Shown here one piece after another: positions 2,398 through 40,567 of a stretch of 64,000 bases of DNA. How positions within the stretch are numbered: position 1 is the stretch's first letter; every line of letters starts with the position of its first letter. The notes below the pieces were generated by a model, which was given only the letters and a program-made list of their open reading frames with translations, was not told the DNA's origin and ran no database searches. Both the position numbers and the translations under genes were made by a program. The DNA is from Pirellulales bacterium (lineage in GTDB: Bacteria; Planctomycetota; Planctomycetia; Pirellulales; UBA1268), in NCBI GenBank assembly GCA_044376405.1, contig JBILKZ010000002.1, positions 1,466 to 65,465 on the forward strand. The letters are read 5' to 3'.

Positions 2398-3678
2398 TCA
2401 GTCTCGCTGGCGAGGCAGCATGAGCCCCAGGGGCGTGCACCTGATGCGGTCTTCGCCGCGGCGGAAAGTCTCCCAGGCCTCGGAGTAACTGAGATCCTCG
2501 CGCTTGGCGAGCCTCAAGCAGGAGTAGCCCAGGAACGAGGCCATCAGGATCCGGAACGGCGTCATGGGTTGTGAGAGGTCGACCGTCATCGCAATCCTCC
2601 GCAGCGCATCGGTTTCCCGGCCCCACGTGGCCGCGTAGGCCGCCAACGCAGCATCCAGCGAATCGCGATGCTCGTGCAGGCACTGAGCGAGCACCGTCGC
2701 GCCTTCCATGGCCGCATTCACTCCCTGCCCCACGGGAGGCACCGGAGCGCCAGCATCGCCCAGCAGCGCCACCCGCCCGGCCACGAGAGACGAGCATCGC
2801 TTGGTCTTGCCGGTCGGCAGACATTGCCGCTGGCTGAACTCCTCCACTTTTGTATCGGAGGCGAAATGCCGCAGCAGGGGATGGGCCCTGTCGAGAAAAC
2901 GACCGGCATCGGCGGCGGAGTCGAATCGCCTCGTGCCGCTGAACCCGATCTGGCAGAACCAGCGCGGATCCGCCGGGCCTCCGGGGCCGTTGATCGCCCC
3001 GGCCACTGCCGTCACAGGATGGACCGCAAGGACATAGAGATACTGCGGATCGAGTTCGTCGAGGTGCTTGTCCAGATGCAGCATCAGGGAATGGTTGCCC
3101 AGATCGGCTCCCTCGACTGCAAACCCGCTGGCCTGCTCGGCGATCGACCGCCGCACGCCGCTGCCGCCGCCGTCGCAGCCCACGACCAGATCGAACCGTC
3201 GCACTTCACCGGCCGCGTCACCCCGCGACGCGATGAGGAGCTGTGGCTGCCCGGCATCGACGAGGGTCGCCTCCGCTCCGAAGTGGAGGGCCGCGGAATC
3301 TGCATGCCGCTCAAGCAGATGGGCCTGGAGACAGCGGCAGATGTCCCCGCGGCTCCCCGTCCAGCCCCTGCCGTGATAGGCCTCCTCTGCGAAGCCAGCC
3401 CCGAGCCGACGAAGCCAAGGGTGGGCGGCGATTCTCAGCCCCTTGAAGTGAATGAGCCCGGCATCGAAACGGTCGGTGATGCCGATGAAGCGAGCCGCTC
3501 GCAGACCGTGGCCCGTGATGTCGATCGTGTAGCTGCGGTCGGGGTTGTAGGTTTCGGCGCTGAAGTGGTCTTCGGCACGCTCGAATACCGCGATCTCAAA
3601 CCCGCCCTGCTGGGCCAACGCCGCAGCGAGCGTCAGACCCGCGGGCCCACCACCGACGATCGCCACGCTGAATGTCAC
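2398..3678 (-). CDS. FAD-dependent monooxygenase (kynurenine 3-monooxygenase-like)
   Basis: GxGxxG dinucleotide fold VAIVGGGPAGLTLA...VFER, a DG motif VVGCDGGGSGVRR, and the late FAD motif LLGDAGAPVPPVGQGVNAAMEGATVL. Confidence 0.8.
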   Translation of the reverse strand: MTFSVAIVGGGPAGLTLAAALAQQGGFEIAVFERAEDHFSAETYNPDRSYTIDITGHGLRAARFIGITDRFDAGLIHFKGLRIAAHPWLRRLGAGFAEEAYHGRGWTGSRGDICRCLQAHLLERHADSAALHFGAEATLVDAGQPQLLIASRGDAAGEVRRFDLVVGCDGGGSGVRRSIAEQASGFAVEGADLGNHSLMLHLDKHLDELDPQYLYVLAVHPVTAVAGAINGPGGPADPRWFCQIGFSGTRRFDSAADAGRFLDRAHPLLRHFASDTKVEEFSQRQCLPTGKTKRCSSLVAGRVALLGDAGAPVPPVGQGVNAAMEGATVLAQCLHEHRDSLDAALAAYAATWGRETDALRRIAMTVDLSQPMTPFRILMASFLGYSCLRLAKREDLSYSEAWETFRRGEDRIRCTPLGLMLPRQRD

Positions 3679-12488: not shown

Positions 12489-15400
12489 ATGGATCACGAG
12501 CAGCAGCGGATCGAGGAAGACCTTCGCGGCATCGTGTCGGGCGAGGTGCTCTGCGGTGCCGCCAGCCGCAGCCTCTACGCCAGCGACGCCAGCGTGAGCG
12601 AGGTCTGGCCGCTGGCTGTGGTGCGGCCGCGGACGACCGACGACGTGGCCGCCACGGTGCGCTGGGCGGCTGAACGCCAGATCCCGGTGCATCCTCGCGG
12701 CGCGGGCACAAGCGTTGCAGGCGGCTCGCTCGGTCCGGGTGTCGTCATCGACTGCGGCCGCTTCCTCCGGCGCATCCTGCAGACCGACGGCGACGAGGTG
12801 CGGGTGCAGCCGGGCGTGGTCGCCGCGCAATTGGAAGAGCATCTCGGACGGCGCACGCGTTCACTCGGCGTCGACCCGGCGAACAGCGGCGTGACCACGG
12901 TCGGTGGCATGATCGGGAGAAATTCATCCGGCAGCCGCTTCCCGCGGTATGGCGCGATGAGCGGCCGCATGATCTCGGCGCGGGTGGTGCTTGCCGACGG
13001 CACGATCCTGGAACTGGTCCCCACGGCCCCCGCTTCAGCGGGCCCGGCGCCGCCTGGCGATGATTCCGGCCCACCCGCCATGGAGGCAGACAGGCTTCGC
13101 CAGCTCGCCTCCGGCGTGGCCACCATCCTCACCTCGTCACGCGATCTGATCGCAGCGGCCCAGCCCGTCACCCGCGGCACACACGGTGGCTATCAGCTCC
13201 ACGACCTGCTCCGCACCCTCGACCGCGACGGGCTCGTCGATCTGCCTCGGCTCCTCTGCGGCGCCGACGGCACACTGGGGATCGTCAGCGAAGCCACGCT
13301 TCGCACCGTGCCGACCGCCGACGCGACGGCCGTGGGACTGTTCCTGTTCGATTCGCTCGACCGGGCGGCAGAGGCGGCACTCAGGCTGCGGCCGCTCTCC
13401 CCCGATGCCTGCGACCTGTTCGACAAGCGACACCTCACCCTGGCCCGCAGCGCCAAGCCGACGTTCGATCAGCTGATCCCATCAGTCGCCGACGCAGGGC
13501 TGCTCGTTGAATTCTCCGGCGACGACGAGCAGGCCGCGACCGCACGCTTCGACGAGGCCGCGCGGCGGCTGCAGGGCTCGCGACCGCTGTGCATCGACGT
13601 CCGCAGGGCCGAGGATGCCGCCGAGAAGGCCATGCTCTGGGAACTGTCCCGGAGCGTGGTGGCCACCCTGCATGGAGTCCGCGGCACCATCCGCCCTGTG
13701 CCGTTCCTGGAAGATGTGGTGGTGCCGCCCGAGGCGTTGCCCGATTTCCTGAGACGGCTGCAGACGGTGCTCAAGCAGTGCGATGCCACGGCGATGCTCT
13801 TCGCCCATGCCGGGCATGGCCAGTTGCACGTGCGGCCTTACGCCGACCCGCGCGATCCCGAAGCTCGCACGAGGCTCGAGCGATTGGCGGACGCCATCTA
13901 TGGCGACGTCGTCGCCGTGGGCGGCACCATCGGCGCGGAGCAGGGCCTCGCCCTCTCGCGGACCCCCTTCTTCGCGACGCACTTTCCGGAACTGGCGGGT
14001 GTGTTCGCGGCCGTCAAGCGGGTGTTCGATCCGCTCGGCACCCTGAATCCCGGCATGATCGTCGGCGCCCCTTCCGTTCCCGCGGACTGGCGGCCACCAC
14101 TGGTGTCGCAGCCACCTCCACCACCGCTGCCCATGCTCACGTGGACGGTCGAGCGGCTGGCCAACGAGGTGGATGCCTGCAATGGCTGCGGAGCCTGTCG
14201 CAGCCAGTCGCCCAGCATGCGGATGTGTCCGATGTATCGGGAGAATCCGGCGGAAGAGGCATCACCCCGCGCGAAGGCCAATCTCATGGCGTCGCTGCTC
14301 TCCGGGCGGCTCGACCCCAGGTCGCTCGGCCAGGATGCCGTTCGTGACATCGCCGACACCTGTTTCAACTGCCACCAGTGCCGGACCGATTGCTCTGCCG
14401 GGGTCGACATCCCCGCGATCGTCAGCGAACTCAAGGCAGCGCATGCCGACATCAACAGCCTCGATCTGCACGCCTGGCTGCTCTCGCGGGTCGACACCCT
14501 GAGCAGACTGGGCGGTGCGGTCAGGCCGTTGGCCAATTGGGCGATTGCCAACCCACAGGCCCGCTGGCTGATGGAGAAAATGCTGGGCGTGGCCCGCGGC
14601 CGGAAGCTCCCCCCCTTCACCGGCCAACAGGTGATCCGCTGGGCGGCCCGCCGGGGCCTGACGCGGCCTTCACGCCGCAGCGGCCCGCGCGTGCTCTATT
14701 TTCTCGACACCTTCGCCCGACGCCACGATCTGCAACTCGTGAAGGCCTTCGTGGCGGTGCTCGAGCACAACGGAATAGGTGTCTTCATCGATCCGCGGCA
14801 GGTCTCTGCCGGGATGCCGCTGGTCGCCGCGGGAGATGTCGACGCGGCGCGACGGCTGGCCCGCACCAATCTCCGCGTGCTCACGGAGGCGGTTCGCCTC
14901 GGCTACCGGATCGTCGCGACCGAGCCGTCTGCTGTGACCTGCATCGTGCACGACTACCCGCTGCTGCTGGAAGACGACGAGATGGATCGCGTGGTGGCGG
15001 CCACCACCGACGCGGCGACGTTTCTTTGGGAACTCCACCGCGAGGGCCGCCTGCGTCTCGACTTCCAGCCGCTGGTCACCGCTGCCGACGCAAGCCAACA
15101 GCCTACGAGCCGCATTCTCTATCATGCTCCCTGCCATGCGCGGATCGGCCGCGACAAGAGTCCCGCCGAACATCTCTTGCGGCTCGTGCCCGGCCTCGCA
15201 ATCGACACGGCCGACCGCGGCTGTTCGGGAATGGCCGGCACGTTCGGCCTCTCCCGGCGAAACTATCGCACGAGCCTGCGGGTGGGCCTGGGGCTCGTCT
15301 CCGCCATGCGGAGCAGCGGCATCGAGGCAGGTGCTACCGAGTGCAGCGGCTGCCGGATACAAATGGAGCAGGGCACCTCCAAGCCGACGGTGCATCCGAT

Positions 15401-15789: not shown

Positions 15790-17322
15790 GTGGCCACTTC
15801 GGACAGGAACAGCCCACCCGCATCGACTGCGTCGCTCCTGGTCTGGGAGCCGATCGACACGGCCCGTCTGCTCGAGTCGGTGGCGAACGACGCGGCCGGC
15901 GCGAACGTGCTGTTCACCGGCACGACCCGTGGTGTGACGGCCGGCGTGCTCACCACTCAGATCACCGAGCGGCTCACCTACGAAGCCCACGAACCGCTGG
16001 CCTCCGCCGTGCTGGCCCGGCTGCGGGACGAGGCGGTGGCACAGTACGGCCTGACCGCGTGCGCGATCATCCATCGGCTCGGCGAGGTCGCCGTCGGCGA
16101 GACGAGCGTGGCCATTGCCACGAGCGCACCGCACCGCCGCGAGGCCTTTGCCGCAGCGGAGTGGCTGATGGAGCGGATCAAGCGCGAGGCGCCGATCTGG
16201 AAGTGTGAGGAGGGAGCCGGCGGCGACCGCAGCTGGGTGCATCCAGATAGTGGGTTGCATCCCGCCAGTGAGTCGCGATCCGAGCCACGCCCCGTGCTCG
16301 TCGACGGCTTCGGCCGCGTCCACACCGACCTGCGGATCAGCGTCACCGACCGCTGCAATCTCCGCTGCACCTACTGCATGCCGCTCGACGTGGCCTTCAA
16401 GCCACGGGAGGAACTGCTCAGCTACGAGGAGATCGTGCGGGTGGCCCGCGTGGCGGCCGGACTCGGCATCCGTTCGATCAGGATCACGGGGGGCGAGCCG
16501 CTCGTTCGGCGCGACGTCGCCGAGCTGGTGCGGCAGCTCGTCACCATTTCCGGCATCGCGGAGGTGTCGCTCACGACCAACGGCCTGCTGCTGGAGGAGC
16601 AGGCCGCCGACCTGCGTCGGGCGGGCCTGCATCGGCTCAACGTCAGCCTCGACGCGCTCAATGAGGATGCCTTCGAGCGTATCGCACGGAGGCAGGGCCT
16701 GGCTCGCGTGCTGGCCGGGCTGGCGGCGGCCAAGGCGGCCGGCTTTCAGTCGATCAGGATCAACGCCGTCTCCATCCGCGGCCTCACCGAAGGGGAGATC
16801 GTGCCACTGGCGGAGTTCTGTCGCCGTGAGGGGTTTCACCTGCGGTTCATCGAGTTCATGCCGCTCGATGGCGAGTCATCCTGGTCAGACGGTCAGGTGC
16901 TCTCCGGTCGCGAGGTACGCGACATGCTCACGCGGCACTTTGGACCGCTCATCCCTGCCGTCCGCGGCGACGCCGGCCAGCCGGCGATCGACTATTCCTA
17001 TGCCAATCACGACATCGCGAACGCCGCGATGGGTGCTGCCGGTCTTCCCACGCAGGCTGCCGGTGTCGGCTTCATCGATCCAGTGACACAGCCCTTTTGC
17101 GACCGATGTGACCGGCTGCGACTCACGGCCGACGGTCAGTTTCGCAACTGCCTGTTCTCGACGACGGAGTGGGACGCGCGGCACGCGCTCCGCGCGGGCG
17201 GCTCCGACGACGAGATCGCCCGCCTGCTTCGCGATTGCGTGCTGGCGAAGCGGGCCGCGCATGGCATCGGCACACCGGCATTCGAGCGGCCAGCCCGCGC
17301 GATGTATCAGATCGGAGGATGA
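15790..17322 (+). CDS. fused molybdopterin synthase catalytic subunit (MoaE) and GTP 3',8-cyclase (MoaA)
   Basis: N-terminal half has IIHRLGEVAVGETSVAIATSAPHRREAFAAAEWLMERIKREAPIWKCEE (MoaE). After a linker of about 30 aa comes LRISVTDRCNLRCTYCMP...ITGGEPLVR...CDRCDRLRLTADGQFRNCLF...IGG (radical-SAM MoaA). GTG start is 1 nt after the moaD stop. Confidence 0.85.
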   Translation: MATSDRNSPPASTASLLVWEPIDTARLLESVANDAAGANVLFTGTTRGVTAGVLTTQITERLTYEAHEPLASAVLARLRDEAVAQYGLTACAIIHRLGEVAVGETSVAIATSAPHRREAFAAAEWLMERIKREAPIWKCEEGAGGDRSWVHPDSGLHPASESRSEPRPVLVDGFGRVHTDLRISVTDRCNLRCTYCMPLDVAFKPREELLSYEEIVRVARVAAGLGIRSIRITGGEPLVRRDVAELVRQLVTISGIAEVSLTTNGLLLEEQAADLRRAGLHRLNVSLDALNEDAFERIARRQGLARVLAGLAAAKAAGFQSIRINAVSIRGLTEGEIVPLAEFCRREGFHLRFIEFMPLDGESSWSDGQVLSGREVRDMLTRHFGPLIPAVRGDAGQPAIDYSYANHDIANAAMGAAGLPTQAAGVGFIDPVTQPFCDRCDRLRLTADGQFRNCLFSTTEWDARHALRAGGSDDEIARLLRDCVLAKRAAHGIGTPAFERPARAMYQIGG

Positions 17323-33393: not shown

Positions 33394-34259
33394 GCGATCA
33401 CGCTAAAACACCGCTCTTGCGGATCGGCGTTCCCAGCAAGGGACGCCTCGCAGAAATCTCTGCGCAACTCCTCAACGATGCCGGCGTCTCTTTCCGCCGC
33501 AACGAACGAAGCCTGTTCGCCCTCTGCCGTGGCATGCAGGTCGAAGTGATTTTCCTGCGGACCGACGACATCCCCGTGCTGACGGCCGAGGGGGCGATCG
33601 ATCTGGGCATCACTGGTGCCGACCTCGTGGCCGAAAGCGGCGAGAAGCTCATCCATCGGCTCGATCTCGGCATCGGCTCCTGCCGGCTGGCCCTCTGTGT
33701 CGCCGACGATTCCCCCGTGACCGACGCCCGTCAGCTCGCGGGCAAGCGGGTTGCCACCAGCTTCCCACGGATCACGCGGCAGTGGCTGGCGGAGCGGGGC
33801 GTGGAGGCCCACTTCGTGGAGCTGTCCGGGAGCGTCGAGATCATGATCAACCTCGGCGTGGCAGACGCCATCGTTGACTTGGTCGAGACAGGCAGCACGC
33901 TCGCCGCCAACCGGCTCCGCGTGCTCGACGAGATCGGCCGATATGAAACGGTGCTCGTGCAGAACGAAAAGGTTCGCGACGCGGCGACCGCCGACCGGAT
34001 CGTACGGCGGCTGGAGGGGATCGTGATCGCTCGCAACTGGTCGCTGCTCGAATACAACGTGCCGAGAACTCGGCTGGCCGAGGCCGAGAAAATCACCCCC
34101 GGCTTCAACTCACCGACGGTCAGTGGACTTGAAGACCCCGACTGGTGCGCCGTGCGGGCGATGGTGAAGCGCGGCGAGGCCCACGCGATCATGGAGCGGC
34201 TCGACGCCATCGGCGCTTCGGCGATCATCGAAACACAGATCGCCAACTGCCGCCTGTAA
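33390..34259 (+). CDS. hisG: ATP phosphoribosyltransferase (long form)
   Basis: LRIGVPSKGRLAE...FLRTDDIPVLTAEGAIDLGITGADLV...DLVETGSTLAANRL, plus a C-terminal regulatory domain. GTGA overlap with hisE. Confidence 0.92.
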   Translation: MSDHAKTPLLRIGVPSKGRLAEISAQLLNDAGVSFRRNERSLFALCRGMQVEVIFLRTDDIPVLTAEGAIDLGITGADLVAESGEKLIHRLDLGIGSCRLALCVADDSPVTDARQLAGKRVATSFPRITRQWLAERGVEAHFVELSGSVEIMINLGVADAIVDLVETGSTLAANRLRVLDEIGRYETVLVQNEKVRDAATADRIVRRLEGIVIARNWSLLEYNVPRTRLAEAEKITPGFNSPTVSGLEDPDWCAVRAMVKRGEAHAIMERLDAIGASAIIETQIANCRL

Positions 34260-34327
34260 AAAAGGTGCCAGCCACCAAATCTGGGCAAGATGCCAGCTTC
34301 CCCAATTTTGGTGGCTGGCACCTTTTT
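34259..34327. terminator. bidirectional hairpin between convergent hisG and DUF1559 genes (repeat family R1)
   Basis: aaaaaggtgccagccaccaaa-N27-tttggtggctggcaccttttt has perfect 21-nt arms with an A-run on one side and a T-run on the other. It fills the gap between the two stop codons exactly. Confidence 0.7.
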
Positions 34328-35283
34328 CAGTCGACGGCGGCGACCTCGCCGCCCGAGGCGCTTGCCAACGCGGCCCACGTGGTGCGGTCGATGGCTGCGG
34401 CAATGAAACGCATCGCCCCGTCTCCCATCACGACGTTCGCACCGGCAGGGTGCTGCGAATACATCTGGTCGCAATGCCCGGCCGGGTCGTTGGGCACGTG
34501 AATGATGCCCGCCTCGCCGGCCGCAGGGCCGCTGTGCGACAGCACGAGGGCCGCGGCGTGCTCGGCAGCCGTGGTACCACGAAAGGCATCGGCCGGGTGA
34601 CTGAATCCGCCCGCCACGATCCCAGCCCAGGACTTTTGCGAGAGGGCCTGCGAGTGTTCGCCCACGAACACGGTCTTTGACAGACCATCGATCACCTCGG
34701 CTGCTCGCAGCCTTGAGTTGCGATAGAGCGGTCCGTTGGCGATGCCGCGCCATTCAACACGGGGTGATCCATCCCAGGGATCCTCATGGCCGGCGTTGGC
34801 GACATAGTCACTGCGACCAAGCATCGCCCCAGATCCGTGGGCCGCGCCGCTGGCATCGAGGACGGCGAACGCATCGCGAAGGCCGGTTGACGATGGGCAC
34901 AGGAAGGTCGTCAGCCGGCGTGAAACGATCGGTCGATTGGCGACGGCAGCCACCCCAGCCGTCGCATCGTAGGCTGCCGCAGCGGCCCCCTCCTCCAGAT
35001 ACGGAGCGATCGCCAGGCCCCACCCCGTGCCAGGCGGTGCGTCGAACGTGGCGGGATCGCGGCCAGCGGCCGCAGTGTCGGCCAGATACCCGGACGGAAA
35101 GTGACGACGTGCGTCGAGGAAGGTCTGCATCGCGATGCCGATCTGGCGGAGGCTATTGCCACACTGTCCCCGACGAGCAGACTCCCGGGCCGCCTGCACC
35201 GCGGGCAGGAGCAGGCCCACGAGCCCGCCGATGATCGCGATCACGACCAGCAGTTCCACCAGCGTGAATCCGCGACGCCGCAT
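34327..35283 (-). CDS. DUF1559 protein with prepilin-type N-terminal methylation motif and H-X9-DG motif
   Basis: MRRRGFTLVELLVVIAIIGGLVGLLLPAVQAARESARR, and C-terminal HPAGANVVMGDG. The ATG at 35283 is preceded by GAGGAG. The track start is 35304. Confidence 0.9.
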   Translation of the reverse strand: MRRRGFTLVELLVVIAIIGGLVGLLLPAVQAARESARRGQCGNSLRQIGIAMQTFLDARRHFPSGYLADTAAAGRDPATFDAPPGTGWGLAIAPYLEEGAAAAAYDATAGVAAVANRPIVSRRLTTFLCPSSTGLRDAFAVLDASGAAHGSGAMLGRSDYVANAGHEDPWDGSPRVEWRGIANGPLYRNSRLRAAEVIDGLSKTVFVGEHSQALSQKSWAGIVAGGFSHPADAFRGTTAAEHAAALVLSHSGPAAGEAGIIHVPNDPAGHCDQMYSQHPAGANVVMGDGAMRFIAAAIDRTTWAALASASGGEVAAVD

Positions 35284-35321
35284 ATTTTGGCTCCTCAAAA
35301 CCATGATTTTGACTTCTCAAA

Positions 35322-35350
35322 ATATTAGTTTTGGTGGCCCAAAAAGTCAA
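35322..35350 (-). promoter_or_regulatory. sigma70-like promoter for the DUF1559 gene
   Basis: The minus strand reads TTGACT-17 nt-TAATAT, about 40 nt upstream of the ATG at 35283, in an A/T-rich patch. Confidence 0.45.
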
Positions 35351-35384
35351 TGCGGGGGGTGCGGGGCTCAAACATGCATCGCGG

Positions 35385-35478
35385 ATTCCCTCGCTCGCGC
35401 GTCGGGCTTGCATGGGAGCGGGGAGTCAATTGCTTATGAGCGGGGCTCCATCCAAGCCCGCAGCGCAAGCAAGGGAAT
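35385..35478. repeat. inverted pair of REP-like units
   Basis: Left arm attccctcgctcgcgcgtcgggcttgcatgggagc. The right arm reverse-complements to attcccttgcttgcgctgcgggcttggatggagc. The centre contains CAATTG. Same unit as 10389-10419. Confidence 0.7.
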
Positions 35479-35530
35479 GATCCTCACCATAGTGAGCCCA
35501 AAAATGGTGACTGTCACCTTTTTCAGCTCG

Positions 35531-36322
35531 TTAGGCGTGGCCGCCGAGAATCTCCCGTAGCCGCATGCCCGGGAGCCGGCCGAGGGCGAGCGGTTCCACG
35601 CCCTCGCCAAACGTCGCCACCGTCTCGTTCCGCGACGACCAATCGACCTGCTCGATCGCTGCGAGTTGGACAATGTACGACCGGCCCACCCGCGCAAAAG
35701 CGCTCGTAGGCAGAACCTTGTCCCAATAGGTCAGCCGGCGACGGAAGAGCACGACGCCTACCGGTGGCTTGAGCGCCACCCGCGTGTAGTTACGAAGCGA
35801 CTCGATCCAGCAGATGTCACTGACGGTCACCACATTCGACGTGGTCTTGCCGGCCAAGGGCACGTTCACCACGTCATCAAGCCCCAGGACCGCCACGGCT
35901 GCAGCCTCGTCCGCGTCGAGGTCGTCGGTGCCCTGCTCGCGGTCCCCTCTCGGCCGGCCCCGCGTGCCGGCAGCCTGCTTCTGGAGGCGGGCGACCGTGT
36001 CGGCGAGTCTTTCGGGATCAACAGGCTTCACGAGATAGTCGAGGGCCGCAGCAGCGAACGCCTGCACGGCATACTTCTCGCGAGCCGTGACAAACACCAC
36101 CTGTGTGGCATCGGACACATCCTTGAGCAGGTCGAAACCGCTGCCCCCCGGCATTTCCACGTCGAGAAATACGACGTCCGGCGAATGCGTTTCGAGAAAG
36201 GCCCGGGCCTCGGCGACGTTCCCGGCGACGCCGGAGACGACGATCTCCGGATAGGCTGAGAGGAGTTTCTGCATCCGTTCATTGGCACGAGGCTCGTCGT
36301 CGACGAGCAGGGCCGTGATCAT
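35531..36322 (-). CDS. LytTR-family response regulator
   Basis: Receiver MITALLVDDEP...DVVFLDVEMPGGSGFDLL. C-terminal LytTR-like ICWIESLRNYTRVAL...FARVGRSYIV. An alternative ATG at 36367 lies 1 nt after the kinase stop. Confidence 0.88.
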   Translation of the reverse strand: MITALLVDDEPRANERMQKLLSAYPEIVVSGVAGNVAEARAFLETHSPDVVFLDVEMPGGSGFDLLKDVSDATQVVFVTAREKYAVQAFAAAALDYLVKPVDPERLADTVARLQKQAAGTRGRPRGDREQGTDDLDADEAAAVAVLGLDDVVNVPLAGKTTSNVVTVSDICWIESLRNYTRVALKPPVGVVLFRRRLTYWDKVLPTSAFARVGRSYIVQLAAIEQVDWSSRNETVATFGEGVEPLALGRLPGMRLREILGGHA

Positions 36323-36368
36323 CGTGCTATCCGGAGGGATGCGGGCGGCTTGTGAGACTGAAGGCATG

Positions 36369-37580
36369 TCAGACGAGTTCCTCAGCTGGGGTCGGTTCGC
36401 GGACGGCCGGCGATGGCTGGGTGAGCGTCGCAGGCATCCGGATGACGACCCGCACCCAGCCGCCATCGAGGTCCGGGTCGATCACCGTATCGACGGTGGC
36501 CGCCTCATCGACCAGCAGGGCCATCCGCTTGCGGAGCGAACGGATCCCAGTGGAGGGCGAACGCGACGTGTCGGGCGGCACCCATCGGCCGGTGTTGGCG
36601 ACCACCACCTCGAGCCAGCCATCGGCCACCTTCGCCGTCACGCTCACCCGCAGCGGCATGCTGCTCGTCTGGGCTCCATAGTGCAGCGCGTTTTCGAGGA
36701 TCGGCTGAATCAGCATCGGCGGCACGATCACGGCATGGGCTGCCCTGTCGCATGAGAAACGGCAGACGAGGTTGTCGCCAAACCGCGCCTGCTGAACAGC
36801 AAGGTATTTCTCGAGGGCCTGCAATTCCCGTGACAGCGGCTCAAACTCGCGGGCCTCTTCGAGCGTGAACCGTAGATAGTCGGCGAGGTCGCGGGTGACG
36901 CTCTCCACGGCCTCGGGGTCGTCCTTGCTGGCCGCCACGGCGTTGAGCGCATTGAAAAGGAAATGCGGATTCATCTGCGCCTGCAGTTGCCGCAGTTCGA
37001 ACGTGCGGGCCTCCGCCTCCGCCTTGAGCATCCGGAGTTCCAGATCCATCGCGGTCGCCTCGTTCTCCGCGAGCAGGATCTTTGCCCGGTAGAGATCCTC
37101 GATCAGCTCCAGCCCGAAGACGATCAAGCACCAGAGGCCCGCCGCGATCAGCCGCGGCACGAGCGGCCCGAGCGTCGTCTCACGGGTCCAGTTCGTGGGC
37201 CCGCCGACGCCGCCGCCGATGAGCAGCAGAATCGATGCTGCGAGCGCTACCACCGCCACGCCCACCATCAGCGGCCACCGCACCTTCCGCGGCAGCTCGC
37301 GGAGCCGCGGCAAATCGAACAGCAGATAGACAAGGCTCGAAACCACGAAGCCGGTGGCCACTCGCAGTGCGACCGGCAGCCACGGCATCGGCTCGCCGGG
37401 CTTGAAAGCCATGCTCATCCCCAACACGGCCGCGCCAATTGCCAGCCAGAACACGACTTGGAATGCCCAGAAGATCCGCTTCCGCCACCGAGGAAGCGCC
37501 CGCCGAAGCGCCGCCATCCTTGGCGGCACGACCCCCGTCGCATTCGCAGCGGGCAAGCGGGCGATTGGAGTCGAATCCAT
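36369..37580 (-). CDS. LytS/YehU-type sensor histidine kinase
   Basis: 5-6 N-terminal TM helices, a coiled linker, His-kinase motif QMNPHFLFNALN, and the ATPase N-box PMLIQPILENALHYG. Confidence 0.88.
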   Translation of the reverse strand: MDSTPIARLPAANATGVVPPRMAALRRALPRWRKRIFWAFQVVFWLAIGAAVLGMSMAFKPGEPMPWLPVALRVATGFVVSSLVYLLFDLPRLRELPRKVRWPLMVGVAVVALAASILLLIGGGVGGPTNWTRETTLGPLVPRLIAAGLWCLIVFGLELIEDLYRAKILLAENEATAMDLELRMLKAEAEARTFELRQLQAQMNPHFLFNALNAVAASKDDPEAVESVTRDLADYLRFTLEEAREFEPLSRELQALEKYLAVQQARFGDNLVCRFSCDRAAHAVIVPPMLIQPILENALHYGAQTSSMPLRVSVTAKVADGWLEVVVANTGRWVPPDTSRSPSTGIRSLRKRMALLVDEAATVDTVIDPDLDGGWVRVVIRMPATLTQPSPAVREPTPAEELV

Positions 37581-37674
37581 GGGAGCTGCCGCCGAGGGGG
37601 GTACTCACTGATGCTTGTGGGGCGGGGATCGCCTGAGTCAGCATCTGCAGTATGGCGCATCCCGGTAGCCGCGT

Positions 37675-37774
37675 CAGCCGTAAGGGCGGCCCGTGTCAAT
37701 TCGTGCGCGCCGGCTGGCTGATTCGTGCGCGCCAGTGTCGATTCGTGCGCGCCAGTGTCGATTCGGCATTTTGC
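37675..37774 (+). promoter_or_regulatory. ~100-nt repeat element A with 3.5 direct ATTCGTGCGCGCC cores
   Basis: Cores start at 37699, 37721 and 37741, with a truncated one at 37761. Near-identical to 38776-38875. It ends 90 nt before the PEP-CTERM gene start and about 95 nt from the kinase start on the other strand. The regulatory role is inferred. Confidence 0.6.
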
Positions 37775-37863
37775 GGGGTAAGTCGCGTTGACAGAACCCA
37801 TGAAAACGCTTCACTGGTGGGGTTTCTAACCATAACCCTGCCGTCATTGTCGGAGTCGCGCTC

Positions 37864-38628
37864 GTGGGCAAGTTCATAGATAAGTTCGTCCGTCGGCCCT
37901 TCGTTCTCTCAGCCGTCGGTTTGGTCGTGACAACCGCGATCCGCGTGACGGCCATCGCCGCATCGCTCGCCGCAGGAGGCTCGACTTTTGCTGAACCCGT
38001 CTTCATCGGCGATTTCGACGGCAACACGATCACCGCGGTCGCAACCAACGAGTTGAGCTGGGCCCCTGCTTCCCGTTTGCTTGATGGAAGTGGGATGATC
38101 GACCTGACGGACGGGCGGGTCACGATGAACTCCAAGGCTTACAATACCTGGCCGGAAGTGTGGCTGTCAGATTATCGGGGCCCATATGGAACCAACGGGT
38201 CTGTTCTGTTTACTTTCGGAGAAAACACATCGCTTGAAGCGATGGTGATATGGAATATGAGTAATGCTGGATCCCCCACCGCATACGGGAGAGGTGTGCA
38301 GTTGGCGACGATTTCGTACTCGACGGGCGCTGACACGAGCGGCGAGGGCTCGACTCTATTTGATGGGACACTGGCGGAGGCAGTCTGGTCGGGGACGTAC
38401 ACCGGTATCGGCTATCAAAACAACATCAATGGTTTGACCGCGCAAAACGTAAAGGCTGTCAAGATGGCCTACACGTTGAACTATGGTAGCGGCGACTACA
38501 TCGGCCTGAGTGAAGTGCGTTTCGTGGGAACGCCCGTCGTCGTGCCCGAGCCCTCCACTTACGCCATGGCCCTCGCCGGTCTGGTCTGGGGTGGCTACTC
38601 GATGTGGCGGCGTCGCAAGCGGGCCTGA
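37864..38628 (+). CDS. PEP-CTERM protein with discoidin/galactose-binding-like body
   Basis: Signal/anchor-like N-terminus. The body ends ...GDYIGLSEVRFVG. C-terminal VPEPSTYAMALAGLVWGGYSMWRRRKRA. GTG start with GGAG 8 nt upstream. Confidence 0.85.
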   Translation: MGKFIDKFVRRPFVLSAVGLVVTTAIRVTAIAASLAAGGSTFAEPVFIGDFDGNTITAVATNELSWAPASRLLDGSGMIDLTDGRVTMNSKAYNTWPEVWLSDYRGPYGTNGSVLFTFGENTSLEAMVIWNMSNAGSPTAYGRGVQLATISYSTGADTSGEGSTLFDGTLAEAVWSGTYTGIGYQNNINGLTAQNVKAVKMAYTLNYGSGDYIGLSEVRFVGTPVVVPEPSTYAMALAGLVWGGYSMWRRRKRA

Positions 38629-38660
38629 CTCGAGACCTTCGCGGTGATCGTGATCTCACC

Positions 38661-38700
38661 CTGGGCTGGGCATCGCAGGATGCCCAGCCCGGTTTCGTTT
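38661..38700 (+). terminator. hairpin plus T-rich tail after PEP-CTERM gene 1
   Basis: ctgggctgggcatc-gcag-gatgcccagcccgg followed by tttcgttt. Confidence 0.6.
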
Positions 38701-38716
38701 GTGAAAGGGAAATCGA

Positions 38717-38770
38717 GGACGGGAGCGGCCTCTGCGAACCAGACGGGAAATTCGCTCCCGTCCCTTTTTT
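38717..38770 (+). terminator. second hairpin with T-run (GGACGGGAGCG family)
   Basis: ggacgggagcg-N25-cgctcccgtcc followed by ctttttt. Confidence 0.5.
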
Positions 38771-38775
38771 CTGTC

Positions 38776-38875
38776 CAGCAGTAAGGGCCGTTCGTGTCAA
38801 TTCGTGCGCGCCGGCGGGCTGATTCGTGCGCGCCAGTGTCGATTGGTGCGCGCCAGTGTCGATTCGGCATTTTAC
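38776..38875 (+). promoter_or_regulatory. ~100-nt repeat element B
   Basis: Copy of 37675-37774 at an offset of exactly 1101 nt, with about 7 mismatches by hand alignment. Cores start at 38800, 38822 and 38842 (the last is ATTGGTGCGCGCC), with a truncated one at 38862. It ends 87 nt before the start of PEP-CTERM gene 2. Confidence 0.6.
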
Positions 38876-38961
38876 TGCGTCTGGCCGCTTGCAGACGAAG
38901 GGGGCGGGGGGCTAGTTTTCGCTACGAACGCATCACCTCGCCCCCTAAAGAGCCCAACCCC

Positions 38962-39762
38962 ATGAAAGCAATTATCTTCGCCAATTGCCTGGCTGTGATG
39001 CTTGCCGCAGGACTCACTTCATTCGAAGGAACTGCACGCGGCGCGATAATCCAACTTACCGGCGGCGACCCTTCCGACGGACTCGCACTTGATCCCAATT
39101 CTGTCTTCGCGGCGATCTATACACCAGCGGACGGGAACTTCTCGCAATCCATCTTCCCGAGCGCAACTCAAACTTTTCAAGGCGTCACATTTTCCGCTAC
39201 GCCTTCCAGCATCGCGAGAGGAGGTCCCAGCGGATCGGGTGTCTATATTTTGGGAGCCCTGAACGCTGGCTCTGCGGGATTCAGTGACCCTGGATCTCCG
39301 TCCACGCAAGACGACAATCTGTTAAGTTTGATCAATGCCGGGGCGTACTTTAACTCCGAGTATCTCACGTTCACCGTTTCCGACTTAGCCCCGTACACCA
39401 GCTATCGGATCGACACGCTTTCGTCAAATCTTGGCTTCAGCACTCCTCGTTCGTTTACAGTCTCTTACAACGGCGGATCGGTTGCCGATACCCTTGCCAT
39501 CAGCGGTGCTGAAACTAACTACATCTATGCCATTCAGGATGTGGTGAGTTCAACTGGTGCAGGTGAGATCTTTATCAGATACGACAAGCTCACAGGGGAC
39601 GGACCCACGATCAATGCCTTGGTTGTTTCAGCTTTAACGTCGTCAGTCCCCGAGATCGACCCCGCTGGCTTCGGTAGCGTCGCGGCGCTCCTGACGGGGG
39701 CGTTCGGCCTGATCGAGCAGCGGCGTCGCCGTCGTAGCGAGACGATCGCTCGCTCCGCCTGA
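38962..39762 (+). CDS. PEP-CTERM sorting-domain protein
   Basis: Signal peptide MKAIIFANCLAVMLAAGLTSFEGTARG. C-terminal SVPEIDPAGFGSVAALLTGAFGLIEQRRRRR. The ATG at 38962 is preferred over the track start at 38794, which would read through the repeat element. Confidence 0.85.
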   Translation: MKAIIFANCLAVMLAAGLTSFEGTARGAIIQLTGGDPSDGLALDPNSVFAAIYTPADGNFSQSIFPSATQTFQGVTFSATPSSIARGGPSGSGVYILGALNAGSAGFSDPGSPSTQDDNLLSLINAGAYFNSEYLTFTVSDLAPYTSYRIDTLSSNLGFSTPRSFTVSYNGGSVADTLAISGAETNYIYAIQDVVSSTGAGEIFIRYDKLTGDGPTINALVVSALTSSVPEIDPAGFGSVAALLTGAFGLIEQRRRRRSETIARSA

Positions 39763-39789: not shown

Positions 39790-39830
39790 ACCGGGCCGGG
39801 CATCGCAAGATGCCCGGCCCGGTGTCGTTT
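39790..39830 (+). terminator. hairpin plus T-rich tail after PEP-CTERM gene 2
   Basis: accgggccgggcatc-gcaa-gatgcccggcccggt followed by gtcgttt. Homologous to 38661-38700, with a compensatory base-pair change. Confidence 0.6.
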
Positions 39831-40039
39831 GGTGACGCCGTTGTCTTTTTGCGAAGTGCCCCCGAGGCGGAGGACGAATCGGGGACGGGAGCGACTTTTG
39901 CCACGATCGCTACACACGCTGTCGTCGCCTGTTCCCGTCAACCGCAGTCGACACTGAGAGGACGAGAGCGGCTTTTTCTGCGACCGATTCCACGGCACGT
40001 GATTGAATTCACTCCCCCCCTTTTTTGCCGTAAGTCACT

Positions 40040-40423
40040 ATGCGACAACCTTTGGAATACATTCACCTGTTTTCGGACGGTCTAGGCGAGTCGCATATTA
40101 AAACTGCGACCATACCGCTCCAGTCAGAGCAATTCGCACCGCCCGAACCACCGCTCGATGTTTCTGCCGTGAGCCGAGCTGAAGGGTGGAACCTCCTCAG
40201 ATTCGCTGCGGACTGGGTCGGTGGCTGGCATTGCACACCCTTCAGACAATGGATGTTCATTCTCACCGGGCAAGCAACTGTTCGCGCAAGCGACGGCAGC
40301 CAATGCGATCTCAAGCCGGGAAGCATCTGCCTGCTTGAGGACACCCGGGGAAAAGGGCACCTAACGACAATCATCGGGGGCAACGAGGTGCTGATCGCTG
40401 CCGTTCAAATTCCGGATCGGTGA
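40040..40423 (+). CDS. cupin-like small protein, hypothetical
   Basis: 127 aa. GWHCTPFRQWMFILTGQATVRASDGSQCDLKPGSICLLED suggests a beta-barrel cupin core. Weak call. Confidence 0.45.
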   Translation: MRQPLEYIHLFSDGLGESHIKTATIPLQSEQFAPPEPPLDVSAVSRAEGWNLLRFAADWVGGWHCTPFRQWMFILTGQATVRASDGSQCDLKPGSICLLEDTRGKGHLTTIIGGNEVLIAAVQIPDR

Positions 40424-40426
40424 ACG

Positions 40427-40547
40427 AGGTGCCAGAAAAAGGTGCCAGCCACCAAATCTGGGCAAGATGCCAGTTTCTCCAAGAAAAACGTGCCAGCCAC
40501 CAAATCTGGGCAAGATGGCAGCTTCTCCAATTTTGGTGGCTGGCGCC
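40427..40547. repeat. tandem 1.5 copies of repeat family R1 between convergent gene ends
   Basis: ggtgccagccaccaaatctgggcaagatgccag occurs at 40441 without its 3' arm. At 40490-40547 it occurs with the arm tttggtggctggcgc. Same element as 34259-34327. Confidence 0.8.
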
Positions 40548-40567
40548 ATTTCCCCCATTTTTCATTT

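Follow-up and report, generated by a model that had tools for sequence, protein, structure and literature searches.

A phased direct-repeat array beside a LytS/LytTR two-component system as a probable portable promoter module of PEP-CTERM-like surface protein genes in Planctomycetes

The operators of regulators with a LytTR DNA-binding domain consist of direct or inverted repeats of 8-11 nt, separated by spacers of 10-13 nt and thus recurring with a period of about 20-23 nt (PMC4847170, PMC11347149), and they share no common consensus (PMC4847170). The majority of LytTR regulators are activators with binding sites upstream of the -35 element (PMC11347149); the promoter-proximal repeats bound by AgrA are centred near -60 at the divergent P2 and P3 promoters (PMC4227749), and RcoM-1 and CoxC recognize three direct repeats, TTCNNGCA or TTNNNGCN, spaced by 12-13 nt (PMC11347149). 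For genes coding for PEP-CTERM proteins, a shared upstream motif has been found to mark single-gene operons with long intergenic regions (Haft et al. 2006, PMC1569441), but the associated Prs system has been reported only in Proteobacteria, and the regulators and motifs of other phyla were, according to that study, yet to be found (PMC1569441). Here we analyze a stretch of 64,000 nt from a planctomycete of the order Pirellulales (contig JBILKZ010000002.1 of assembly GCA_044376405.1, positions 1,466 to 65,465; hereafter the window), in which an element of about 100 nt built from phased direct repeats is present twice, as elements A and B, each upstream of a gene for a secreted protein, with a gene pair for a LytS-type histidine kinase and a LytTR-type response regulator adjoining element A (Table 1). 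We consider it very probable that the element acts in cis as some kind of regulatory module close to the promoter, and likely that it is, more specifically, a portable LytTR operator and promoter, the arrays of which are bound by the regulator encoded next door; binding would activate the PEP-CTERM genes and probably also the operon of the regulator itself. A literature search returned no paper linking LytTR with PEP-CTERM or describing such a system in Planctomycetes.

Each element comprises three copies of the core ATTCGTGCGCGCC, the last of which reads ATTGGTGCGCGCC in element B, followed by a truncated fourth unit; counting the latter, the units recur at 22, 20 and 20 nt in both copies. 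Tandem Repeats Finder assigns the two arrays a period of 20 with 3.8 and 3.5 copies, a repeat search of the window recovers A and B as a 105-nt pair with 91% identity, and all six matches to ATTCGTGCGCGCC at zero or one mismatch in the 64-kb window fall within them. This anatomy bears out the original prediction, made from the bare sequence, of an element occurring twice at an offset of 1101 nt with about seven differences, three cores per copy, a truncated fourth and 22-20-20 spacing: exactly seven of the 100 positions differ between 37675-37774 and 38776-38875 (37679, 37688, 37690, 37691, 37715, 37744 and 37773). The homology ends abruptly on both sides and includes no coding sequence, the identity of the flanks at the 1101-nt offset (34% upstream and 28% downstream) being that of random sequence. 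Start codons follow at similar distances, 89 nt from 37774 to the GTG of gene 1 at 37864 and 86 nt from 38875 to the ATG of gene 2 at 38962, and the two coding sequences are, as also claimed at the outset, unalike (BLASTP E = 12). Element A sits in a divergent intergenic region, between the kinase gene on the minus strand and gene 1 on the plus strand.

Table 1. Features of the window around the two repeat elements (window positions; promoters are putative and assigned by consensus).
Feature	Position	Strand	Details
Element A	37675..37779	+	leader ends CGTGTC; cores 37699-37711, 37721-37733, 37741-37753; partial repeat GATTCGGCATTTTG 37760-37773
Element B	38776..38880	+	cores 38800-38812, 38822-38834, 38842-38854 (last = ATTGG); partial repeat GATTCGGCATTTTG 38861-38874
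Response regulator, receiver and LytTR DNA-binding domains; candidate repeat binder	35531..36325	-	Pfam PF00072 E=2.7e-21; PF04397 E=9.1e-11
LytS/YehU-type membrane histidine kinase, divergent from element A	36369..37580	-	Pfam PF06580 His_kinase E=5.1e-23
Putative kinase/regulator operon promoter	37649..37677	-	-10 CATACT (37654-37649), 17-nt spacer, -35 CTGACG (37677-37672)
Putative sigma-70-type promoter, gene 1	37788..37815	+	TTGACA (37788-37793), 16-nt spacer, TTCACT (37810-37815)
Gene 1, secreted PEP-CTERM protein	37864..38628	+	PF07589 E=1.4e-6; TIGR02595
Two intrinsic-terminator-like hairpins after gene 1	38661-38692, 38742-38762	+	terminator prediction
Putative promoter, gene 2	38889..38918	+	TTGCAG (38889-38894), 18-nt spacer, TAGTTT (38913-38918); same +28 geometry as element A
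Gene 2, secreted protein, C-terminus VPEIDP, transmembrane helix and RRRRR	38962..39762	+	PEP-CTERM-like, without a model call
Terminator after gene 2	39791..39840 (hairpin 39791-39822)	+	paralogous to the first hairpin after gene 1
Small cupin-like protein, conserved neighbour of the locus	40040..40423	+	weak Pfam matches, AraC_binding and Cupin_2

Recurrence of the array was assessed in a sample retrieved through the regulator and blind to the motif. Eleven contigs with regulator homologues were fetched, and the seven distinct ones that retain the region upstream of the kinase gene (L001, L003, L004, L051/L052, L054, L157 and L159; regulator identity 72-87%) all carry phased GATTCG-type repeats there. 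The array of L003 presents five cores at a strict 20-nt spacing, as against three in the window; in L054, where a second array lies 4 kb off before another gene, GTCGATT(C/G)GTGC is all that stays constant across four units, and in L052 only CGATT(C/G)G survives. The array next to the kinase gene of L157 is interrupted by a scaffold gap, a run of N (3420-3520). Short-read assemblies struggle with these repeats and may collapse or break the arrays, and copy numbers taken from metagenomes may therefore be underestimates; calls of open reading frames (ORFs) in this high-GC DNA are likewise approximate. In a scan of 185,579 species genomes the paired core was found in eight loci from six planctomycete metagenome-assembled genomes (MAGs), besides unrelated tandem repeats in other phyla, and a metagenome scan contributed 101 further loci, apparently from lake samples for the most part, judging by the contig sets. 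Deduplication left 127 arrays of two to nine cores each, with 249 of 261 spacings at 20-22 nt (141 at 20, 56 at 21 and 52 at 22 nt) and 12 at 19 nt. In all 16 non-redundant loci that include the 5' end of the kinase gene, with kinases 55-95% identical to that of the window, the first core lies 99-248 nt from the kinase start codon. Other arrays lie at a distance from the two-component system (L026, L024, L011 and L054:1494), that of L026 in a locus syntenic with the window yet without kinase and regulator, and this looks like the pattern of a regulon.

An alignment of 34 non-redundant window-type arrays, anchored on the terminal partial repeat, reveals conservation of the cores, G(A/T)TT(C/G)GTGCGCGCC, and of the terminal unit, G(A/T)TTCG(G/T)C(A/C)TTTTG, with variable spacers of 7-9 nt (GTGTC, TGCCC, TTCCC, GCGCT), drift in the sequence past the -35 element and divergence beyond about 35 nt downstream. 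The heart of the repeat is the 9-nt sequence GATT(C/G)GTGC, and GATT(C/G)G..GC is what remains in the deepest comparisons (L054, L052). These data bear directly on the notion that the element might be a neutral 20-nt minisatellite, copied in a segmental duplication and devoid of any regulatory role. The near identity of units within an array speaks for such an origin, as do the range of two to nine copies among relatives, which includes a change from three to five between strains with 95% identical kinases, and the fact that Nocardia, Spirochaetaceae and others have unrelated tandem arrays with the same 11-mer. The cores, however, are kept while the spacers drift, the phase is held at 20-22 nt, arrays persist across lineages with 55-70% kinase identity, and the homology between A and B stops sharply without taking in coding sequence.

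The arrays in unrelated phyla are intergenic and combine the same (G/A/C)ATTCGTGCGCG(CC) core with a period of 19-23 nt. They occur in Nocardia (L005, L016, L019-L022, L028, L030-L032, L034, L035, L038, L039, L041, L043, L044, L046, L047 and L049), Pseudonocardia (L006/L010/L017), Salsuginibacillus (L018, about 30 copies), a Spirochaetaceae MAG (L023) and Halobellus (L048). Regulator and kinase yielded no tblastn match in these non-planctomycete loci, and none of the listed ORFs flanking the arrays of L022 and L023, the translations of which were read by eye only, resembles a LytTR-type two-component system; with no such system detected beside them, the arrays were treated as unrelated tandem repeats and not as the same system. 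Recurrence across phyla is probably due to chance among very many tandem repeats: by our own rough estimate, tandem repeats of 19-23 nt number in the millions in 596 Gb, and an 11-mer could by chance fall inside one of them in about 15 independent lineages. The recurrence of a 13-14-mer is nonetheless curious.

Downstream of the array, the spacing to a promoter-like sequence is fixed. In a test not conditioned on TTG, 31 of 48 non-redundant arrays have this trinucleotide at a distance of exactly 28 nt from where the terminal repeat starts, compared with a maximum of seven at any other offset outside the terminal-repeat motif itself, and TAnnnT is found 16-18 nt past the TTG in 12 of the 31, as opposed to a mean of 0.5 at control offsets. 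Consensus matching suggests sigma-70-type promoters of this geometry for genes 1 and 2, and a third, divergent promoter for the kinase/regulator operon (Table 1); CAGTATG(A/G) is present, as counted by eye, in 14 of 16 aligned kinase-adjacent intergenic regions. Relative to the inferred transcription starts, the terminal site would be centred at about -57 and the full cores at about -77, -97 and -119, with the first core at about -63 for the kinase operon. The element is found only in promoter-proximal intergenic DNA. In the architectural class to which the window belongs, arrays are always oriented toward the downstream gene, and in 24 of 31 non-redundant arrays followed by a complete ORF its product is PEP-CTERM-like, with tails of the types VPEPST...RRR, VPEIDP...E(Q/R)RRR and (S/T)EI(N/C/Y)A...FRR. 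Under a stricter motif, PEP-CTERM-like products account for 33 of 114 ORFs that begin near an array end, versus 15 of the 1443 remaining ORFs of these loci (odds ratio 39, Fisher p = 1e-28). The fixed 28 nt to the TTG, the TAnnnT further on and this enrichment add to the case against a neutral minisatellite, which we regard as quite improbable. Fixed promoter spacing and recurrence in related genomes, where the array precedes many different PEP-CTERM-like genes, support instead the initial interpretation of the element as a cis-regulatory module shared by different cargo genes and not the relic of a gene duplication.

A candidate source for the binding protein, overlooked in the original prediction, is the adjacent LytS/LytTR pair. 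The LytTR domain of the regulator scores 42.3 bits against PF04397 (cut-off 22.6), at least 120 of its close homologues carry the name of LytT/LytTR-family response regulator, and homologues are numerous in freshwater metagenomes and planctomycete MAGs. We propose that the LytS-type kinase partners this regulator and that the latter, once phosphorylated, would bind the GATTCGTGC repeats, all of which would lie on one face of the helix, given their recurrence at 20-22 nt. The occupied array would then activate a weak sigma-70-type promoter with its -35 TTG 28 nt after the terminal partial repeat, a distance that would place the proximal site near -60. Element A would in this manner drive gene 1 and, from its far end, probably also the divergent kinase/regulator operon, resulting in autoregulation, and element B would place the unrelated gene 2 under the same control. 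Both the binding by this regulator and the activation are what we infer from the fit to LytTR operators: repeat length and period, a deeply conserved 9-nt heart, the sub-motif TTCGTGCG contained in the core ATTCGTGCGCGCC, the position relative to the putative promoter and the divergent layout with the regulator operon, the LytTR gene adjoining the array.

Among described systems, AgrC/AgrA of Staphylococcus aureus resembles the arrangement proposed here in that a LytTR gene adjoins its own target, with direct repeats upstream of the -35 element (PMC4227749), and in that divergent promoters, sub-optimal where activated, separate a regulatory operon on one side from an effector on the other (PMC4227749); the outermost sites of the array in the window would lie in a comparable position, at about -57 from one inferred start and -63 from the other. 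The two systems differ in that each promoter under AgrA has 9-bp repeats in pairs, whereas three to four sites (two to nine in relatives) with a 13-nt GC-rich core are present here; the kinase is of the LytS type (PF06580) and not of the AgrC type, there are no peptide pheromone genes, and the targets are PEP-CTERM surface proteins, the module having been copied to unlinked genes. RcoM-1 of Paraburkholderia xenovorans and CoxC of Afipia carboxidovorans, compared by their operators only, share the evenly spaced triplet of direct repeats, but both belong to the one-component type, sensing CO (haem-PAS or MHYT plus LytTR) and controlling cox genes, unlike the two-component response regulator of the window, and CoxC represses by overlapping the -35 element, while the more numerous sites of the window end about 15 nt before the putative -35. 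AlgR of Pseudomonas aeruginosa recognizes several 9-bp sites, which are dispersed and in part far upstream. The AlgZ(FimS)/AlgR system likewise consists of a LytTR regulator and a kinase of the PF06580 type and controls surface functions, with a role in exopolysaccharide (PMC4847170), but it has no phased tandem array and has other targets.

A parallel in function is the PrsK/PrsR/PrsT system, in which a dedicated two-component system is associated with a shared and sometimes repeated upstream motif (PMC1569441). In this case the differences lie in the regulator, an NtrC-like enhancer-binding protein as opposed to a LytTR protein, in the motif, which is there 17 nt long and ends in TTTACA, and in the promoter, a sigma-54 site there and a sigma-70-like sequence at the window copies. 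No PrsR, PrsK or PrsT is found among the annotated neighbours in the window or the related loci. The lack of the sigma-54 site in the window and the different family of the regulator mean that the system is not a member of the PrsR group; by analogy, we suggest that the element may work like an agr- or RcoM-type LytTR operator in the role that motif 1 and PrsK/PrsR fulfil in Proteobacteria.

A more distant clade of array-bearing loci (clade 2) complicates this picture, because its last core is followed, after 20-22 nt, by a near-consensus sigma-54 -24/-12 motif, TTGGCACG-N4-(T/G)TGCA, in the form TGGCACG-N4-[TG]TGCA. In 1.49 Mb, 39 of 49 sigma-54-like motifs are located just downstream of an array core, at 20-22 nt in all distinct cases but one; examples are L056:237-300, L057:4121-4180, L103, L105, L115:10465-10530 and 13463-13560, and L082:6790-6825. 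An array of LytTR type abutting a sigma-54 promoter directly is unusual. Between distal and proximal arrays, the palindrome GGAGCGAATCGCTCC, which holds the CGATTC half of the core in inverted orientation, occurs in two to three copies about 30 nt apart (L056:130-230, L115:10380-10465, L082:6460-6560, and upstream of the kinase gene in L052/L051), and may represent an additional type of binding site, recognized by the same or another protein. Arrays of opposite orientation are also seen, as in L082 (6610-6770), where seven to nine copies with a 21-nt period separate the kinase gene from an FGE-sulfatase-like PEP-CTERM gene, and likewise in L068, L121, L059 and L072.

Taken at face value, the sigma-54-like motifs and the palindromes between arrays, together with the use of a sigma-54 site and PrsR by proteobacterial PEP-CTERM genes (PMC1569441), favour a scenario in which the arrays are genuine cis-sites bound by a protein encoded elsewhere, such as a PrsR-like sigma-54 enhancer-binding protein, the neighbouring LytTR gene being a co-located target or a coincidence. 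Several lines of evidence nevertheless make this scenario unlikely. Neither GG-N10-GC nor a TGGCAC-N4/5-TTGC-like motif is found near elements A and B, and a sigma-54 promoter for the window's own elements was rejected for lack of GG-N10-GC, the single sigma-54-like match of the window being at 16543, far from both. Moreover, the arrays abut the promoter, too close for an enhancer that acts by looping, and consist of direct repeats at 20-22 nt, the signature of LytTR operators, when enhancer-binding proteins mostly bind inverted repeats. Finally, neither in L115 nor in any other locus with Pfam calls was a Sigma54_activat gene found next to the arrays, and adjacency to the LytTR gene is kept down to 55% kinase identity.

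A number of observations must be set against binding and activation by the neighbouring regulator. At the sigma-54 promoters that abut clade-2 arrays, a LytTR regulator alone cannot activate transcription, and the arrays of opposite orientation imply that orientation is not strict outside the clade of the window. Three to nine near-identical sites contrast with the two (three for RcoM and CoxC) of typical LytTR operators, and the identity within arrays could partly reflect concerted evolution of a tandem repeat. Conservation of the core is partly by construction, since most related loci were retrieved by the motif itself and only those of the regulator-first sample are unbiased. A simple sigma-70 consensus scanner called none of the promoters proposed for the window. 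With respect to the protein, a sequence search of the PDB with the full regulator returned receiver domains only, and the LytTR half alone gave no meaningful match; an AlphaFold model based on 26 close homologues has a predicted local distance difference test (pLDDT) score below 50 for residues 122-264 and is unusable there, so that DNA-binding competence is predicted by Pfam alone.

The element could also act as RNA, in the form of a structured 5' leader, riboswitch or small RNA common to both mRNAs. Element B does fold better than shuffled sequences (z = -2.67), but element A does not (z = -0.21), the predicted folds of A and B differ, and the units are direct and not inverted repeats. No Rfam family matches: a search of 37300-39300 with E values up to 1 returned only a chance match, to the Pseudomonas small RNA P6, at 16 bits. 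The promoter-like hexamers lie downstream of the array, which is thus probably not transcribed with the gene, and an RNA-level reading was dropped when the folding of both copies with their leaders gave no consistent structure; we deem it very improbable.

Plasmid iterons are direct repeats of 17-22 bp with a phasing of about 22 bp. They are hence similar in size and phasing to the units described here, and the swapping of cargo between conserved ends among strains might further suggest replication-origin iterons or the ends or sites of a mobile element, be it a miniature inverted-repeat transposable element (MITE), an integron-like cassette site or a phage site. Against such an identity, no rep, integrase or transposase gene lies nearby, housekeeping genes flank the locus, terminal inverted repeats are absent, and a locus holds several arrays, each of them before a gene; viral contigs and plasmids yielded no array matches. 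The original prediction had contemplated a generic MITE or repetitive extragenic palindrome (REP) scattered without preference in orientation or distance. The element is not scattered, and both window copies precede genes, although the inverted arrays of the distant clade depart from a uniform orientation. In view of the neighbours, the lack of plasmid matches, the presence of direct repeats only and the two gene-directed copies, identification as a plasmid iteron or as a MITE or REP was rejected; an origin or mobile element is largely refuted and, in our estimation, extremely improbable.

With the array thus best interpreted as a LytTR-type operator and promoter, the genes downstream deserve attention. 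Both had been described as PEP-CTERM genes, which holds for gene 1, a member of a small family that exceeds the cut-offs of PF07589 (28.6 bits versus 20.7) and TIGR02595 (26.4 bits versus 16), but only in a looser sense for gene 2. The latter has no Pfam or NCBIfam match, and as no curated PEP-CTERM or VPEID-CTERM model reaches threshold we term it PEP-CTERM-like and not a called member; the equivalent tail in L026 scores 10 bits against TIGR04161 (VPEID-CTERM), with a cut-off of 33. C-termini of the gene 2 type nevertheless recur behind arrays in L009, L026, L054, L075, L090 and others, and Pfam and NCBIfam detect no domains in the other targets with VPEIDP tails, except for a ubiquitin domain in L026. 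In this cargo (L026:3164-3967, minus strand), a clear match to the ubiquitin family (PF00240, E=2.4e-16) is preceded by a signal-peptide-like N-terminus and followed by the VPEIDP tail, so that the product resembles a ubiquitin-like protein secreted by a planctomycete and anchored at its surface. For gene 1, a structural model with a pLDDT of 62 has SUN, CBM32 and F5/8-type C domains as its best PDB matches, and the central domain is accordingly predicted to be a galactose-binding-like beta-sandwich. No exosortase was identified among the large ORFs of the window that were scanned.

Given the two hairpins between gene 1 and element B, gene 2 constitutes a separate transcription unit. The hairpin after gene 2 is homologous to one of those after gene 1 and to the hairpins behind the single target gene of relatives, so that the common 3' ends, which had gone unnoticed in the original prediction and consist of the sorting signal where relatives are concerned and of the terminator hairpin in the two units of the window, extend the repeated frame to a whole expression cassette of array and promoter, cargo, sorting signal and terminator. 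The comparison with L001 and L013, the kinases of which are 95% identical to that of the window, illustrates this organization. Homology extends over 34000-37930, from the regulator and kinase genes across array, promoter and leader to the end of the first 22 codons of gene 1, then breaks, and returns at 38542-38701 with the sequence coding for the PEP-CTERM tail and the terminator. The centre of gene 1 (37931-38541) is replaced in these strains, the intervening proteins being just 33% identical. Considered together with L109, in which the kinase-adjacent array bears a promoter region of the element B type, and L009, where a leftover coding end for a sorting signal precedes a third array, these breaks indicate that conserved ends frame an exchangeable centre.

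In some relatives the slot of element B and gene 2 (L001:3934-4496, L003:2584-4189 and L004:3997-4559) holds toxin-antitoxin pairs (VapB/PIN, HepT/nucleotidyltransferase), and a hotspot of insertion seems to exist between the target gene and the cupin gene. The cupin gene itself lies directly behind the kinase-adjacent array in the more distant relatives L115 and L057. On the other side, a gene with DUF1559 and an N-terminal-methylation (pseudopilin-like) signature is found directly downstream of the response regulator gene (34327-35304, minus strand), a position kept in L001-L004. A palindromic REP-like element of 68 nt (AAAAAGGTGCCAGCCACCAAATCTGGGCAAGATGCCAGC...GGTGGCTGGCACCTTTTT) is present at 34259-34326, 40436-40503 and 40484-40551, and its copies flank an island that reaches from the DUF1559 gene through the two-component system and both target genes to the cupin gene; L001, L003 and L004 have copies at comparable places.

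A broader model may be built on these features, and we put it forward tentatively, as possible though doubtful as a whole. Array and promoter at one end and sorting signal and terminator at the other would serve as a frame within which unrelated surface cargo is exchanged by homologous recombination, so that a single sensor would control a strain-variable and expandable set of genes, the number of sites (two to nine) setting the gain of each slot. In the sister clade, the LytTR regulator would be an accessory factor at sigma-54 promoters, perhaps through DNA bending.

PEP-CTERM/exosortase proteins are abundant in environmental bacteria, and their regulation is known only for Proteobacteria, through PrsK/PrsR and sigma-54. 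The locus analyzed here provides a candidate for the Planctomycetes, made up of a kinase/regulator pair, a recognition sequence of 9-13 nt and a set of target genes identifiable from sequence alone. What is new in it is a proposed PEP-CTERM-like regulon in this phylum, with a variable-number array of near-identical sites, and a portable module with exchangeable cargo that is combined with two promoter types in different lineages. For the LytTR family, the variable-number phased array, acting as a portable promoter module, would represent an operator of unusual form. For the organisms, the swapping of cargo behind the module among close strains bears on cell-surface variation in uncultured freshwater planctomycetes, in which the module is probably an on-switch for variable surface proteins.

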